The notes: generated by a model from the letters alone, not told the origin. A stretch of 32,000 nt of DNA from Candidatus Omnitrophota bacterium (GCA_021735045.1 JAIPHU010000005.1:30001-62000), one strand, 5' to 3'. Shown: positions 1,542-23,693, counted from the first letter of the stretch. Made by a program: numbers and translations.

Positions 1542-2609
1542 CTAGATAAGATTTTTATTGCGGAACTCTAACTCTAAATCCTCTCTTTGATCTGAGTATT
1601 CTAAGGCAACTTGACTGGCTATTTCTTTTGATTCAACCAATTCTAGAAGTGACTGATTAAATGTCTTCATCCCGTAAACATCCCCCGAAGCTATATATTT
1701 AGGTATCTCAAAAATTTTATCTTCTCTTATTAATCTGGATATAGAAGGGCTTAAAACCATCGACTCATAAGCAGGTATAAGCCCGCCCTCTTGTTTAGGA
1801 ATTAACCTTTGTGAAACTACACCTTTTAATAAAGTAGAAAGTTGACTAATAATTAAACCATGTTGATGAGGCGGGAAAAAGTTTATAATTCTCTGTATTG
1901 TTGAAGACGCATTTACCGTATGAATTGTAGAAAAAACTAAAACTCCAGTCTCAGCCGCAGTTAAAGCAGCATAACAAGTTTCGGCATCTCTAATATTACC
2001 TATAAAAATCACATCCGGTGAATGAAGAGCAAACTGCTTTAGGGCTTCTTTATAGTTTCTTACGTCTTTGCCTATTTCTCTTTGATTTACAATCGAGCGC
2101 TTATCTTTAAAAGTAAATTCTACCGGCTCCTCTATAGTTAAGATGTGATAACCCAAATTATTATTTATATATTCTAACATAGTGGCAATTGTAGTTGACT
2201 TACCTGAACCAGTTGCTCCGCTTAAAAGCACCATCCCTCTACGCTGCTTAGATAAATTAGTCAGTAACTTAGCAGGCAAGTTTAACTCTTTAAAACTGCT
2301 AAGTTTTAAGTTAATTTTACGGATTACAACCGCTGGAGTATTTCTTTGAAAAAAAACACTTATCCTAAACCGCCAATCTTCTTTATACCAAAAAGTAAAT
2401 TCACAATTTTTCCTCTCTTTTAAATCTTCTTTAGCTTTTAAATCCGGCAGTTTTTCTATTAAACTATCTATTTCTTCTAATTTTATTTTGGTATCCCCTA
2501 TTTGAGTAACTCTGCTGTCTATTCTAGCTTTTAGAGGGCTGCCTGCCCTTATAAATAAATCGGAAGAATTTTTTTCTATCATTATTTCAAATATTTTATC
2601 TATATTCAT
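1542..2609 (-). CDS. pilT: Type IV pilus retraction ATPase, PilT/PilU family
   Basis: 355 aa with Walker A GATGSGKSTT and PilT-like overall sequence (LTIEEPVEF, FSTIHT). AAGGAG lies upstream of the ATG. Confidence 0.85.
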   Translation of the reverse strand: MNIDKIFEIMIEKNSSDLFIRAGSPLKARIDSRVTQIGDTKIKLEEIDSLIEKLPDLKAKEDLKERKNCEFTFWYKEDWRFRISVFFQRNTPAVVIRKINLKLSSFKELNLPAKLLTNLSKQRRGMVLLSGATGSGKSTTIATMLEYINNNLGYHILTIEEPVEFTFKDKRSIVNQREIGKDVRNYKEALKQFALHSPDVIFIGNIRDAETCYAALTAAETGVLVFSTIHTVNASSTIQRIINFFPPHQHGLIISQLSTLLKGVVSQRLIPKQEGGLIPAYESMVLSPSISRLIREDKIFEIPKYIASGDVYGMKTFNQSLLELVESKEIASQVALEYSDQREDLELEFRNKNLI

Positions 2610-8082: not shown

Positions 8083-8116
8083 AAAAACCAAAAAATTCCC
8101 ACCGCGGAGGTGGGAA
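8083..8116 (-). terminator. Rho-independent terminator downstream of yoeB
   Basis: The minus strand reads TTCCCACC-TCCGC-GGTGGGAA followed by TTTTTTGGTTTTT. Confidence 0.65.
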
Positions 8117-8133
8117 ATGGTTATTATTCTTAA

Positions 8134-8195
8134 CATTCGAATTAAGCGGCCCGCCTCGACAGCCGAAGGCTGGCGGGCGAGGTCTCGCTCGAATG
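8134..8195. other. GC-rich nested hairpin element (62 nt) between the yoeB stop and its terminator
   Basis: Outer stem CATTCGA (8134-8140) pairs with TCGAATG (8189-8195). Middle stem GCCCGCC (8149-8155) pairs with GGCGGGC (8172-8178). Inner stem CAGCC-GAA-GGCTG spans 8160-8172. The middle and inner stems share position 8172, so the exact register is ambiguous. Its GC content is far above the surroundings. Confidence 0.5.
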
Positions 8196-8220
8196 AGTTA
8201 TCAGACATTTTTATCTAAAT

Positions 8221-8484
8221 CTATTCATAATGCGTCCATAATCGAATAATTTTTATGGTTTTGTATTTTTTTATAATTTGGTAAACTACACGATGCTGAA
8301 TATTTATTCTTCGGGAATAAGCCCCTTCCAAGTCCCCTATTAATTTTTCAAAAGGTGGGTGTTTTTGGTAAGGATCTTTTTCTAAAATTTCAAGAATAGC
8401 TTCTGCTTTTGAGCGTAGCCCTGCAGCGGAAAGTTTTTTGGCATCTTTTTGCGCTTGCTTAGTATAGACGAGTTTCCAGCTCAC
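8221..8484 (-). CDS. yoeB: YoeB/Txe family toxin (ribosome-dependent mRNA interferase)
   Basis: 87 aa. SRRINIQHRVVYQI...IRLWTHYE matches the YoeB C-terminal catalytic region. The GTG start overlaps the antitoxin TGA stop (GTGA). Confidence 0.85.
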   Translation of the reverse strand: MSWKLVYTKQAQKDAKKLSAAGLRSKAEAILEILEKDPYQKHPPFEKLIGDLEGAYSRRINIQHRVVYQIIKKYKTIKIIRLWTHYE

Positions 8485-8723
8485 CAGTTTAGCTTTTTAT
8501 CGCATTTTTTAAGAGGAGTTTTTAATCCTTTGCGGATCGATTCCCTCATTTTAGGAATAGAAAGCAAAAATAAAGTTTCTTTAATTGCTCTCCAATCCTC
8601 TTGGCTAATCAGGACAGCATCGTGCCTTTTGCCACTAATTTGGATAGGTTCGTGAGATTCAGCTAATTTATCTAACAATTTATATAATTTTGCTCTTGCT
8701 TGGCTTGCTGTTAAAGTTGTCAT
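8481..8723 (-). CDS. yefM: YefM/Phd family antitoxin
   Basis: 80 aa. MTTLTASQARAKLYKLLDKLAESHEPIQISGKRHDAVLISQEDWRAIKETL is a typical YefM/Phd N-terminal domain. GGAGGTG lies upstream of the ATG. Confidence 0.85.
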   Translation of the reverse strand: MTTLTASQARAKLYKLLDKLAESHEPIQISGKRHDAVLISQEDWRAIKETLFLLSIPKMRESIRKGLKTPLKKCDKKLNW

Positions 8724-8743
8724 TGCTTTTCACCTCCATATAA

Positions 8744-8772
8744 AACGTACCATATTGCGTACGTCTTGTCAA
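8744..8772 (-). promoter_or_regulatory. TA operon promoter with an overlapping GTAC-core inverted repeat (putative operator)
   Basis: Minus strand: TTGACA (8772-8767), 17-nt spacer, TACGTT (8749-8744). The inverted repeat ACGTAC-N8-GTACGT (8745-8764) covers the spacer and the -10. Confidence 0.5.
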
Positions 8773-8949
8773 GGTGCTTTTATTTTTATTATTTATGCCT
8801 AACATCTACTATACAGCCGTCGTAATTTGTAAAAACTCCTATTTTTAAGGTAGCATATTTTTATAAATTTCTGAAAAAAATGCCAATTTATTTCGTCTAT
8901 AAGCAGAGGGTAAAAAAATAGGCGGCTTCCACCTAACAAGAAAGTTTTT

Positions 8950-8986
8950 TAGCAAATAAAACCATTTCCCACCTCCGAGGTGGGAA
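8950..8986 (-). terminator. Rho-independent terminator downstream of comEC
   Basis: The minus strand reads TTCCCACCTC-G-GAGGTGGGAA followed by ATGGTTTTATTTGCT. The stem is identical to that of the 8096-8116 hairpin. Confidence 0.6.
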
Positions 8987-8990
8987 TCGG

Positions 8991-14121: not shown

Positions 14122-14194
14122 TGGAGCCGGGGGGATTTGAACCCCCGACCTCAACACTGCCAGTGTTGCGTGCTCCCAACTGCACCACGGCCCC
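14122..14194 (-). tRNA. tRNA-Ala (anticodon GGC)
   Basis: Manual cloverleaf: GGGGCCG/TG/GTGC..AGCAC/CAACA-CTGGCAG-TGTTG/AGGTC/GGGGG-TTCAAAT-CCCCC/CGGCTCC/A. The G3:U70 identity pair is present. No CCA is encoded. Confidence 0.9.
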
Positions 14195-14353
14195 GTTGAA
14201 AATGCAATTATATAGCGAATACCTTAATTTTCAACGGCACTAAGCCAAATTCCTTGGCGAAGTGCCTTAGTAACCTAAATAAGATACTTCGTCATTTCAT
14301 TCCTCAGTATCAATTCGATTAGAACTTTTTCTTCGAAAAAGCTAAATCTCATT
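14195..14353 (-). ncRNA. Candidate structured RNA, copy 1, directly 5' of tRNA-Ala (unknown family)
   Basis: Helices read on the minus strand:
- P1: AAUGAGA (14353-14347) pairs with UCUUAUU (14284-14278).
- P2: CUUUUUC-GAA-GAAAAAG (14341-14325).
- P3: GAUACU-17 nt-AGUAUC (14311-14283).
- P4: GGCACU..GCCAA-GGAAU-UUGGC..AGUGCC (14266-14236).
- A 9-bp hairpin GUUGAAAAU/AUUUUCAAC (14235-14195) abuts tRNA nt 1.
The second copy at 23034-23190 keeps all helices through compensatory changes. Confidence 0.55.
14207..14234 (-). promoter_or_regulatory. Sigma70-like hexamers just upstream of tRNA-Ala, embedded in the terminal hairpin of the RNA module
   Basis: Minus strand: TTGAAA (14234-14229), 16-nt spacer, TATAAT (14212-14207), 12 nt before tRNA nt 1. 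Confidence 0.45.
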
Positions 14354-14355
14354 GA

Positions 14356-14384
14356 ATATTATCATCTCCCTAAGAAATTGTCAA
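14356..14384 (-). promoter_or_regulatory. Sigma70-type promoter for the structured RNA, copy 1
   Basis: Minus strand: TTGACA (14384-14379), 17-nt spacer, TAATAT (14361-14356). The predicted start falls within or next to the P1 5' strand. Confidence 0.5.
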
Positions 14385-14413
14385 TTGACAAAGATAAATA
14401 GCATTGTTATATT
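14385..14413 (+). promoter_or_regulatory. Sigma70-type promoter for tRNA-Leu and the helicase
   Basis: TTGACA (14385-14390), 17-nt spacer, TATATT (14408-14413). Its -35 abuts the divergent -35, forming the palindrome TGTCAATTGACA. Confidence 0.5.
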
Positions 14414-22892: not shown

Positions 22893-22958
22893 ACTACCTC
22901 CTCCTTTTATTTCTGTGTAGCCCCACTTGCCTTTTGCCTTGTATTGGGCGAAGCAGAA

Positions 22959-23034
22959 TCGGGAGAGCGGGATTCGAACCCGCGACCCCTTGCACCCCAT
23001 GCAAGTGCGCTAAGCCAAACTGCGCCACCTCCCG
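22959..23034 (-). tRNA. tRNA-Pro (anticodon GGG)
   Basis: Manual cloverleaf: CGGGAGG/TG/GCGC..GCGC/A/CTTGC-ATGGGGT-GCAAG/GGGTC/GCGGG-TTCGAAT-CCCGC/TCTCCCG/A. It has the C1:G72 pair and G37 typical of tRNA-Pro. No CCA is encoded. Confidence 0.88.
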
Positions 23035-23190
23035 TTGAAAATGCAATTATATAGGGTTATTCTTTCATTTTCAACGGCACTGAACCGACTTCTTCGGCGA
23101 AGTGCCTAAACACCTAAATGAGATACTTCGTCATTTCATTCCTCAGTATTAATTCGACTAATCCCGGCGTTCCGCCGGGAAAGTCTCATT
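23034..23190 (-). ncRNA. Candidate structured RNA, copy 2, directly 5' of tRNA-Pro (unknown family)
   Basis: Same architecture as 14195-14353:
- P1: AAUGAGA (23190-23184) pairs with UCUCAUU (23123-23117).
- P2: CCCGGCG-GAA-CGCCGGG (23179-23163).
- P3: AUACU-17 nt-AGUAU (23149-23123).
- P4: GGCACU..GCCGA-AGAAG-UCGGU..AGUGCC (23106-23076).
- A 9-bp hairpin (23075-23034) whose last C is tRNA-Pro nt 1. Confidence 0.55.
23046..23074 (-). promoter_or_regulatory. Sigma70-like hexamers just upstream of tRNA-Pro
   Basis: Minus strand: TTGAAA (23074-23069), 17-nt spacer, TATAAT (23051-23046). Confidence 0.45.
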
Positions 23191-23192
23191 GA

Positions 23193-23221
23193 ATTCTATC
23201 ATGCTTTATAAGGGCTATCAA
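23193..23221 (-). promoter_or_regulatory. Sigma70-type promoter for the structured RNA, copy 2
   Basis: Minus strand: TTGATA (23221-23216), 17-nt spacer, TAGAAT (23198-23193). It sits at the same position relative to P1 as in copy 1, although the hexamer sequences differ. Confidence 0.5.
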
Positions 23222-23222
23222 G

Positions 23223-23693
23223 TTAAATCGCCTTAGCTGTAAAAGAAAATTGCTTAAGCAACTTACCTTGTGTGTAAATTTTTATTTGATATTGGCCTAA
23301 AGGGTCCCCTTTGCTTAACCCCCATACATTGTAAATAATCCCATCTGCTAAATTAGATGATCTTTTAGTGATTGCTTTCTTTCCGTTTCTACTTATTTTT
23401 GTTGATTTGGTAACTAGTAATTTTTTAGGCTTCTCAGGAAAAACAACAACTTCTTCCCAGGATATATCTTTGTCTATCTCCTCGGTTACAATAATCCAGC
23501 CAAAACCAAGATCATCTTTTAAGGTGATTATTTCTGTCTCTTTAATTTTAGGAATATCGCCTCGATAACCAACTACTAAACCAGATTTTGCTCCCAAAAC
23601 CTTTACCTGATAACCGTTATTAACAGCATATAACCCTAGGCCTAGCAAAATAACAACTGTTATAGTTACTATCATCGGCTTCTTTGATTTCAT
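23223..23693 (-). CDS. Hypothetical membrane-anchored or secreted protein
   Basis: 156-aa ORF with an N-terminal hydrophobic anchor (MIVTITVVILLGLGLYAV). It is tightly packed between gpsA and the RNA promoter. I recognise no family with confidence. Confidence 0.6.
   Translation of the reverse strand: MKSKKPMIVTITVVILLGLGLYAVNNGYQVKVLGAKSGLVVGYRGDIPKIKETEIITLKDDLGFGWIIVTEEIDKDISWEEVVVFPEKPKKLLVTKSTKISRNGKKAITKRSSNLADGIIYNVWGLSKGDPLGQYQIKIYTQGKLLKQFSFTAKAI

Follow-up and report, generated by a model that had tools for sequence, protein, structure and literature searches.

Modular, hairpin-rich spacers abutting tRNA genes in a group of Omnitrophota

Introduction

The 5′ ends of transfer RNAs (tRNAs) are made by ribonuclease (RNase) P, and precursors without an encoded CCA are cut after the discriminator base by RNase Z. 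In the tRNA punctuation of mitochondrial transcripts, and in tRNA-flanked small RNAs of eukaryotes and viruses, processing enzymes define the ends of the neighbouring RNA. Among the closest described systems are 3′ETS-leuZ and ITS-metZW of E. coli, tRNA-operon spacers that survive as RNAs, 3′ETS-leuZ acting as a sponge (Lalaouna 2015, via PMC8166272). The present analysis concerns a 32,000-nt stretch of a metagenome-assembled genome of Candidatus Omnitrophota bacterium (GCA_021735045.1 JAIPHU010000005.1:30001-62000; the window), in which two copies of a hairpin-rich element stand directly 5′ of tRNA genes on the minus strand. A first-pass annotation, made from the sequence of the window, had proposed the copy before tRNA-Pro as a functional minus-strand RNA. 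The element belongs to a previously undescribed family of tRNA-abutting spacers in one Omnitrophota group.

As they are summarized in PMC8166272, the tRNA-operon spacer RNAs resemble the element in lying inside a tRNA unit, against tRNA ends; the element, too, would be made in step with the tRNA, and its ends would come from tRNA-processing enzymes. All full copies and all tRNA-linked partial copies are located on the strand of the tRNA, with a promoter or another tRNA on one side and a tRNA on the other. Compared with 3′ETS-leuZ as presented in that summary, the element is three times longer, has five predicted hairpins and a putative internal promoter of its own, is modular and moves between tRNA loci. 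It would differ from mitochondrial punctuation, which it resembles in position, in being bacterial and in having helices flush with the predicted cut sites.

Results

Two copies of the element in the window

Copy 2 (23035-23193, minus strand) abuts tRNA-Pro(GGG) exactly (22959..23034, minus strand, CCA not encoded; ARAGORN, Rfam 56 bits), and copy 1 (14195-14356, minus strand) abuts tRNA-Ala(GGC) in the same manner (14122..14194, minus strand, directly 3′ of the copy; ARAGORN, Rfam). With the upstream promoter included, the copies run from 23221 to 23035 and from 14384 to 14195, both on the minus strand. The element placed at 23034-23221 by the first-pass annotation is thus real, with the correction that 23034 is the first base of tRNA-Pro, and base-by-base comparison recovers every substitution that had been listed between the copies. 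The two copies are ~85% identical, and their differences include compensatory changes. The 28-mer ATACTGAGGAATGAAATGACGAAGTATC, which spans the P3 hairpin, occurs exactly twice in the window (none expected, 100 shuffles), as does the terminal inverted repeat, and a repeat search of the 32 kb found no other notable direct repeats. Shuffled sequence folds less well than either copy (z = -4.1 and -3.4).

The window is ordinary chromosome with housekeeping genes; those neighbouring the copies encode PM0630-family, PilZ, GpsA, AP endonuclease, helicase and ThiC proteins, and no transposase or integrase gene was found close to either copy, in the window or in the loci fetched from other genomes. Rfam 15 at gathering thresholds returns six tRNAs only over the window, and nothing credible at E up to 10 over 22900-23350. 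No family was matched, at gathering or relaxed thresholds, by 18 related loci or by the palindromic form of the P3 21-mer described below, and a literature search by sequence strings gave no relevant match.

Fold and covariation

In the analysis that follows, L-numbers designate stretches from other genomes (L108 coming from the window's own), L001-L090 being genome-collection matches to the 21-mer CTGAGGAATGAAATGACGAAG. Over seven full copies, RNAalifold yields a row of hairpins on the minus strand with 17 compensatory pairs: Stem A enclosing P2, then P3, a small linker hairpin, P4 and a 9-bp terminal hairpin.

Stem A (UUCAAUGAGAC/GUCGAAUUGA) is formed in copy 2 by UUCAAUGAGAC at 23183..23193 and GUCGAAUUAA at 23149..23158, and in copy 1 by 14346-14356 and 14310-14319. 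Its pairs were counted by script, the MAFFT alignment having misplaced one divergent copy; compensatory changes are found at four positions, and a tandem G·A/A·G is invariant in 14 of 14 copies. Stem A persists as a simple hairpin in L096, where P2 is deleted. The enclosed P2 hairpin (copy 2, 23163..23179; copy 1, 14323-14343) is a variable module whose stem is replaced among copies. As the first-pass annotation had observed, six of its seven pairs are exchanged between CUUUUUC-GAA-GAAAAAG in copy 1 and CCCGGCG-GAA-CGCCGGG in copy 2, with length and loop unchanged.

P3 (copy 2, 23124..23148, with the 21-mer CUGAGGAAUGAAAUGACGAAG at 23126-23146; copy 1, 14285-14309) folds as C-G, U-A, G·A, A·G, G-C, G·A, A·G, A-U and U-A around a GAA loop, and its closing stem covaries in L091 (A-U to C-G). 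It is followed by the conserved linker UCUCAUUUAGGUGUUUA (copy 2, 23107..23123; copy 1, 14267-14284), which may form the small hairpin AUCU/AGGU (RNAalifold, seven copies, one compensatory pair). P4 (copy 2, 23076..23106; copy 1, 14236-14266) combines an outer stem, GGCAC/GUGCC in copy 2, with an inner stem that changes, as had been noted, from GCCAA/UUGGC in copy 1 to GCCGA/UCGGU in copy 2; all cells are paired across nine copies, with two compensatory pairs in the outer and three in the inner stem. The terminal hairpin (copy 2, 23034..23075; copy 1, 14195-14235) is closed by the 9-bp stem GUUGAAAAU/AUUUUCAAC, the same in both window copies as described, and its last base in copy 2 is tRNA-Pro +1. 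Across nine copies this stem is 98.8% paired and contains two compensatory pairs, one of which, U-A in the Pro and Ala copies and C-G in the Gly copies, changes with the location of the partner base, at -1 or at +1 of the tRNA itself; in the Gly copies the first tRNA base takes part in the pair.

For the 3′ half as a whole (linker, P4 and terminal hairpin; nine copies), 96.7% of cells pair, and seven pairs are changed on both sides, compared with 2.1±1.1 in column shuffles (0/500) and 0-2 in slid-partner controls. Covariation supports P2, P3, P4 and the terminal hairpin. The fold proposed earlier requires revision in several respects. Three segments that had been read as invariant single strands are not so: the P3 loop is the self-paired tandem-G·A hairpin, UCGAAUU is part of the 3′ strand of Stem A, and the segment CUAUAUAAUUGC of the last loop is a putative -10 promoter box. 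The proposal that conserved loops and covarying stems betray a selected RNA structure consequently stands for the stems, by virtue of compensatory change across independent copies, and falls for the loops, whose conservation belongs to a predicted promoter and to a repeat core.

P1, the helix that had been proposed next to the upstream promoter, uses the same AAUGAGA as Stem A, has its 3′ strand in the linker, and is mutually exclusive with both Stem A and the linker hairpin, which both covary. The reported change from AAUGAGAU/AUCUUAUU to AAUGAGA/UCUCAUU is present, yet it is one-sided; P1 is mismatched in L091, by a change that is compensatory in the linker hairpin, and a 5′-strand change in L110d1 is followed by the Stem A partner and not by the P1 partner. 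For these reasons P1 is displaced by Stem A and is at best an alternative fold. Three further candidates were rejected: a linker-to-loop pseudoknot of UUUAG with CUAWA (mismatched in five of nine copies, with zero compensatory changes); a long-range P3/P4 pairing suggested by RNAalifold from four sequences (contradicted by a double change in L091 that is compensatory for local P3); and a small peptide, the 25-codon open reading frame from AUGAGA in copy 1 being broken by a 2-nt indel in copy 2.

The assignment to the minus strand is upheld, although not by the wobble argument first advanced for it. Some three G·U pairs are balanced by mismatches of the C·A or A·C kind, three of them independent, that would become G·U if the opposite strand were the RNA, so that this argument is weak; better evidence is provided by the invariant tandem G·A pairs and by the constant co-orientation with tRNAs.

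Family members, modules and borders

Relatives were sought by a scan for the exact P3 21-mer (one genome per species), by a metagenome scan for TCGAATT followed by the 21-mer, of which L091 was the sole match, and at orthologous loci fetched through neighbouring proteins. Approximately ten full and ten partial copies were found in at least eight related Omnitrophota genomes. The tRNA linkage that was to be checked in related genomes holds with one exception: all copies but one, a 3′ half in L112, abut a tRNA and lie on its strand. Among the 90 21-mer stretches the whole element is present only in L072, another Omnitrophota genome, directly 5′ of tRNA-Gly(CCC), as is the L091 copy. Further full copies stand at tRNA-Pro (L095, twice; L096/L097; L098-L101) and at the thiC-tRNA-Gly(CCC) locus (L108; L110/L111). 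Full copies 5′ of tRNA-Pro(GGG), tRNA-Ala(GGC) or tRNA-Gly(CCC) thus come from the window, L072, L091, L095, L096, L098, L108 and L110, and are always co-oriented. L095 (1819-2270) has two copies in tandem before tRNA-Pro, of which the first differs in its terminal hairpin and holds a nested repeat arm in P4; between the two lie ~100 nt containing a weak T-arm-like motif.

The element consists of two modules, a 5′ half (Stem A with P2, then P3) and the 3′ half, each of which also occurs alone. The 5′ half follows tRNA 3′ ends, starting at the tRNA-Gly discriminator base in L102, L095 and L110, and the 3′ half stops between positions -1 and +2 wherever a tRNA is linked, L106/L107 included, in which that tRNA is the tRNA-Gly(UCC) of a Thr-Tyr-Gly operon. 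For Ala, Pro and Gly alike, the helices reach the processing sites in every tRNA-linked case. On the modelled fold, the first base of the spacer would be paired after a cut behind the discriminator, and the last base would be paired after a cut before +1.

The same loci in relatives illustrate how variable the assembly is. At the Pro locus the promoter stands directly against the tRNA in L102, and L105-L107 have only a 36-nt leader starting UUCAAUGAGAC; tRNA-Ala is preceded by an 11-nt leader in L098, L096 and L106, and by a 27-nt hairpin of Stem A only in L102. The element is accordingly not one fixed RNA but a modular one, missing at the same loci in relatives and with P2 and P3 swapped or lost.

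Where present, it is well conserved. Identity of the 3′ half between genomes is 77-97%, compared with 73-81% for the flanking coding DNA, 96-100% for the tRNAs and ~48% for a neutral reference, the spacer after tRNA-Pro, in agreement with the earlier view that the copies are not a passive recent duplication. Copy 2 groups with other Pro-locus copies, and copy 1 groups with Gly-locus copies (88-89%) rather than with copy 2 (82%), which indicates that copy 1 reached the Ala locus later, by transfer. TTCAAY, a short direct repeat, occurs at both element borders, and copies of the tRNA-Gly 5′ end are found at one border in L091 (17 nt) and L108 (22 nt), with none in the window copies and no integrase gene; an element integrated at a tRNA att site would have such a repeat at both borders, plus an integrase. 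These borders and fragments fit an origin as a spacer between tandem tRNAs, with deletions and transfers thereafter.

A conserved tRNA-like segment of ~75 nt is also found downstream of tRNA-Gly(CCC) (L108 9093-9260, L110 9619-9800, L112 9716-9900). It reads GCGGGAWAAYCUA...GAGRUUWUGCCGCUCGCCCGCU, is sometimes repeated, ends in a duplicate of the tRNA 3′ end, and is followed in L110 by further 5′-half copies. Such segments look like remnants of repeated integration or tandem duplication.

Promoters within and upstream of the element

Two promoters of the element are predicted, both at the level of consensus matches only. The internal one lies in the terminal hairpin, where the last loop and the 5′ arm read TTGAAA-N16/17-TATAAT and match 11 of 12 sigma-70 consensus positions (promoter scan; in copy 2, -35 at 23069-23074 and -10 at 23046-23051). 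From the end of its -10 box to the tRNA is 12 nt, which matches the native spacing in relatives without the element. The upstream promoter has the hexamers TTGATA-17-TAGAAT in copy 2 (-35 at 23216..23221; -10 at 23193..23198, preceded by TG, its last T being the first base of TTCAATGAGAC) and TTGACA-17-TAATAT in copy 1 (-35 at 14379-14384; -10 at 14356-14361), the divergence that had been recorded earlier. In L102 and L105, which lack the element, it would drive tRNA-Pro directly, and it is thus probably the ancestral tRNA promoter, now 5′ of the whole spacer.

The surroundings of these promoters offer several additional observations. Upstream of copy 2, the stop codon of the PM0630-family gene lies 1 nt from the -35 box (23222-23226), and the CCACC...GGTGG hairpin that follows this stop in L096, L102 and L105 is missing, which makes read-through into copy 2 plausible. 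At the 'empty' tRNA-Pro site of L102 (10465-10545), the -10 box TAAAAT ends 2-3 nt before the tRNA, so that a normal start would fall inside the tRNA; either the start is unusually near, or the tRNA depends on another promoter. Adjacent to copy 1, the divergent tRNA-Leu(CAA) has the near-consensus promoter TTGACA-17-TATATT (14385-14413, plus strand); its -35 box stands back to back with that of the upstream promoter of copy 1, and the two promoters have the central palindrome TTGTCAATTGACAA in common. Finally, the region between efp and accB also has, in L110 (2590-2645) and L112 (2660-2795), a promoter cassette with the conserved spacer AAGGTATTCGCTA. In L112 it is accompanied by a hairpin resembling P4 and by the inverted repeat CAUUAAAAAU/AUUUUUAAUG, which is fully re-paired and ends at the accB ribosome-binding site. 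This L112 cassette is the 3′-half copy away from tRNAs (70 bits with covariance model R1).

The P3 hairpin and a widespread 21-mer

P3 is an exchangeable hairpin module. On orthologous or near-identical backbones it appears as GAUUUCGAAGCGAAGCGAGAAAUC in L095 and as the CUGAACGAAGUGAA type in L096; further variants are GAUUUCGAACAAAGUGAGAAAUC in L108 and CCCUGAGCGAAGCGAAGGG in L102, L098 has no P3, and in nested copies the tip covaries, GC-AAAA-GC or GC-AUCA-GC taking its place. The exact 21-mer itself occurs in 90 stretches from Clostridia, Synergistota, Chloroflexota, Ignavibacteria, Elusimicrobia, Candidate Phyla Radiation (CPR) phyla, Planctomycetota and one Micrarchaeota genome, with no match in viral contigs. 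Up to five or more 21-mer loci are found per assembled genome in other bacteria. In 56 of 92 occurrences (Clostridia, Synergistota and other groups), the 21-mer is the left arm of a long palindrome of the type GTCATTCTGAGG...GAAGAATCTC...GAGATTCTTCGCTACGCTCAGAATGAC, present at several loci per genome. The non-palindromic occurrences have a different distribution: 12 of 36 lie within 150 nt of a tRNA or transfer-messenger RNA (tmRNA) gene, 10 of these on the same strand, where ~2% would be expected by chance, and in L074, L046 and L069 the last G of the 21-mer is tRNA position +1 (of a tRNA fragment in L069).

Individual loci show further associations. Fusion of the 21-mer to tRNA-Val(UAC) is seen in L074 (4082-4102) and L046 (476-496), both on the minus strand, from a Levyibacteriota genome and one binned as Gammaproteobacteria. 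The 21-mer abuts a duplicated 5′ half of tRNA-Gly in L069 (3257-3277, plus strand) and adjoins duplicated tRNA 3′ ends in L031, L062 and L028. In the Roizmanbacteria genome L007 the 21-mer (1933-1953) overlaps the 5′ end of a glmS ribozyme match (1941-2155, plus strand; 41 bits against a gathering threshold of 37) and looks like a graft on the first stem of the ribozyme. Taken together, the 21-mer points to an undescribed and very widespread hairpin module, for which mobility, protein binding or RNA-end protection are possible roles.

Discussion

A proposed tRNA-punctuated spacer or leader

We tentatively favour, with a confidence just short of even, the reading that the element is a selected, transcribed, modular spacer or leader punctuated by tRNAs, carrying an internal promoter and specific to this clade of Omnitrophota. 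The tRNA-sense RNA would form the row of hairpins from Stem A to the terminal hairpin, and could have the upstream promoter, a preceding tRNA operon or read-through as its source. RNase P would then separate the spacer RNA from the tRNA, and RNase Z would cut the other end of the spacer where a tRNA precedes it. With helices flush with the cut sites, the released spacer, or the end of a neighbouring mRNA, would be left base-paired at its termini, which should protect it from end-dependent nucleases. The terminal hairpin, doubling at the DNA level as a putative sigma-70 promoter 12 nt before the tRNA, would meanwhile keep the tRNA expressed with a short leader. The comparisons establish the family and its structure, with the covariation, the borders of the modules and the degree of conservation; transcription, the two processing steps and an end-sealing or stabilising role are proposed here from the sequence.

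Several points weigh against this proposal. In both window copies the upstream -10 box ends on the first T of TTCAATGAG, and a start ~7 nt later should give a transcript without the outer half of Stem A and part of P1. A hairpin flush with the RNase P site might hinder, not help, processing. The internal -10 box has lost its final T in three of nine copies (L091, L095b and L096) with the stem kept, and Stem A bears its C·A or A·C mismatches in three independent copies. The L112 3′ half is not beside a tRNA, and P3 belongs to a probably selfish repeat family. Absence or reduction of the element at the same loci (Pro in L102 and L105; Ala in L098, L096 and L106) shows it to be dispensable. Furthermore, the copies stem from a few related metagenome-assembled genomes and hence are not independent.

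A bolder extension, which must be regarded as improbable, would have the two halves act as portable 'end-sealing' cassettes that make tRNA genes into punctuation marks, protecting the thiC, PM0630, gpsA and accB mRNAs or the spacer itself, with the tandem-G·A hairpin as a pan-bacterial module serving or targeting tRNA boundaries.

Possible selfish repeats

That the element instead grew by accretion of selfish repeats is unlikely, though far from negligible. On this account mobile palindromes, related in kind to repetitive extragenic palindromes (REPs) or miniature inverted-repeat transposable elements (MITEs), would have accumulated with duplicated promoter pieces at tRNA loci, their hairpins being kept for DNA mobility (as single-stranded DNA or cruciforms) and their RNA functionless. 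Correia elements, RPE and ERIC are small palindromic repeats of this order, and Correia elements carry promoters and are co-transcribed with genes. The spread of the P3 21-mer over many phyla, mostly within long palindromes, speaks for such a history, as do the exchange of P3 between otherwise 97%-identical copies (L108 and L110), repeat arms nested within P4 of L095a and L096, the variable presence of the element, the duplicated tRNA fragments and TTCAAY repeats at its borders, and the mismatches of Stem A, among which C·A would become G·T in the complementary strand. The backbone, made up of Stem A, linker, P4 and terminal hairpin, behaves otherwise: it is conserved at orthologous loci at or above the level of coding DNA, all tRNA-linked copies are co-oriented with the tRNA, only two copies are present in 32 kb, and its invariant G·A pairs would be pyrimidine mismatches on the opposite strand. 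Nor does the whole element have the terminal inverted repeats of a MITE or a Correia-type element, the ends TTCAATGAGAC and ...GCATTTTCAAC sharing only the short direct repeat TTCAAY, and neither a transposase nor an integrase lies nearby. Membership of a scattered repeat family, the outcome that the first-pass annotation had set against its own proposal, thus applies to the P3 core, which is found mostly away from tRNAs, and does not apply to the backbone.

Comparison with REP and REPIN sequences (PMC8049555) leads to the same division. P3 resembles them as a short imperfect palindrome with fixed mismatches, whose core recurs many times per genome elsewhere, often as inverted doublets; these traits hold for the 21-mer in other genomes, the window having two P3 copies only. 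It is unlike them in that the 21-mer core spans phyla, whereas REPs are species-specific, and in the lack of a GTAG head, and P3 is the only module of the element in a repeat family. No gene for a RAYT (Y1 transposase) was found in the window or in the fetched loci.

A possible trans-acting RNA

Alternatively, the excised spacer of ~150-165 nt could be a regulatory small RNA, produced together with the tRNA like the 3′ETS-leuZ sponge of E. coli and acting through the linker or through protein binding to the tandem-G·A helices; we consider this improbable. In its favour, a stable RNA would be expected from two sealed ends, every full copy conserves the linker CUUAUUUAGGUU..UAAGG, the tandem G·A motif does not vary, and functional tRNA spacers provide a precedent (PMC8166272). 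Such a role sits poorly with the occurrence of the halves alone, the loss of the element in relatives and the free variation of P2 and P3; nor is the linker-to-loop pseudoknot supported.

A possible promoter architecture

It is also conceivable, and quite improbable, that the RNA is irrelevant and that P4 and the inverted repeat around the -35 box and start form an operator or cruciform regulating the tRNA promoter. The promoter lies within an inverted repeat in all copies, the same cassette stands upstream of accB in L112, and the promoter spacer AAGGTATTCGCTA is unusually conserved. However, the arms and P4 stems change in sequence yet remain complementary (CCGCUGAAAAU, CAUUAAAAAU, GUCGA/UCGAC and GCUUA/UAAGC), which is the signature of nucleic-acid pairing and not of a protein site. 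Decay of the -10 box in three of nine copies, with the stem kept, implies that promoter function alone does not explain the conservation, and the L106 module sits in a tRNA operon that is transcribed anyway. Putative mobile promoters (PMC3575422) offer a parallel, near-identical cassettes preceding unrelated genes (tRNA-Pro, tRNA-Ala, tRNA-Gly and accB) here as well, although the promoter of the element lies within a covarying inverted repeat, after a covarying hairpin, and is locked to tRNA +1 in almost all cases.

Possible switches and comparison with known systems

A riboswitch- or T-box-like switch, in which alternative pairings would control the access of RNase P or the read-through into the tRNA (P1 or Stem A; the 3′ side of P3 with the 5′ side of P4; P4 or an extension of the terminal stem by two pairs into the tRNA), is very improbable: several helices are indeed mutually exclusive, P3 CGAAGU is complementary to P4 ACUUCG with equivalents in L095 and L096, and CC at the end of P4 can pair with the first G residues of the tRNA, but the minus strand has no terminator, Rfam gives no riboswitch or T-box match, no specifier fits tRNA identity across copies, L098 has no P3, P3-P4 complementarity is weak in L108, and the L091 double change breaks the long-range pairing while compensating local P3.

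The element shares with T-boxes and riboswitches a structured non-coding leader of ~150-200 nt, tandem G·A motifs and a link to tRNA. It differs from a T-box in standing upstream of a tRNA gene rather than a synthetase gene, and in lacking a specifier, T-box sequence and terminator; the T-box was rejected on the absence of an Rfam match, of a terminator-like site on the minus strand and of a codon consistent with Gly, Pro and Ala, the specifier-like CCC in P2 of copy 2 and GCU in P2 of copy 1 having no equivalent in the Gly copies. Other classes were rejected likewise. A hammerhead-like CUGAGGA followed by AUGAAAUGAC-GAAG pairs back as a rod with two tandem G·A, with no stem II, GAAA or Rfam match. 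The omega RNAs of IS200/605 and the bridge RNAs of IS110 would have a TnpB, IscB or IS110 recombinase gene as neighbour, and none was found in the window or the fetched loci; integron attC sites and retrons are without partner genes, and the order of attC core sites is wrong. The tandem G·A of Stem A and P3 are flanked by regular pairs on both sides, without the bulge of a K-turn, and the row of separate hairpins is not the single long hairpin of 6S RNA, which Rfam did not match.

Elsewhere in the window, a 0.9-kb gap otherwise poor in open reading frames (8095-8987) contains a YefM/Phd antitoxin (8481-8723, minus strand) and a YoeB/ParE-type toxin (8221-8484, minus strand). The two genes form a cassette with a 39-nt inverted repeat on either side (8095-8133 and 8949-8987, 85% complementary), and a CCCACC...GGTGGG hairpin lies within each repeat.

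Significance

Should the selfish-repeat account be right, the locus would be an ordinary repeat hotspot of modest interest. If the proposed tRNA-punctuated spacer is real, a structured RNA family would be added to a poorly known phylum, together with a bacterial case in which tRNA-processing sites set the ends of a structured neighbouring RNA, its helices lying exactly at the cuts. The locus would also show how a tRNA gene can gain a second, portable promoter. The 21-nt tandem-G·A hairpin extends from Clostridia to the CPR, enriched at tRNA and tmRNA borders when it is non-palindromic.

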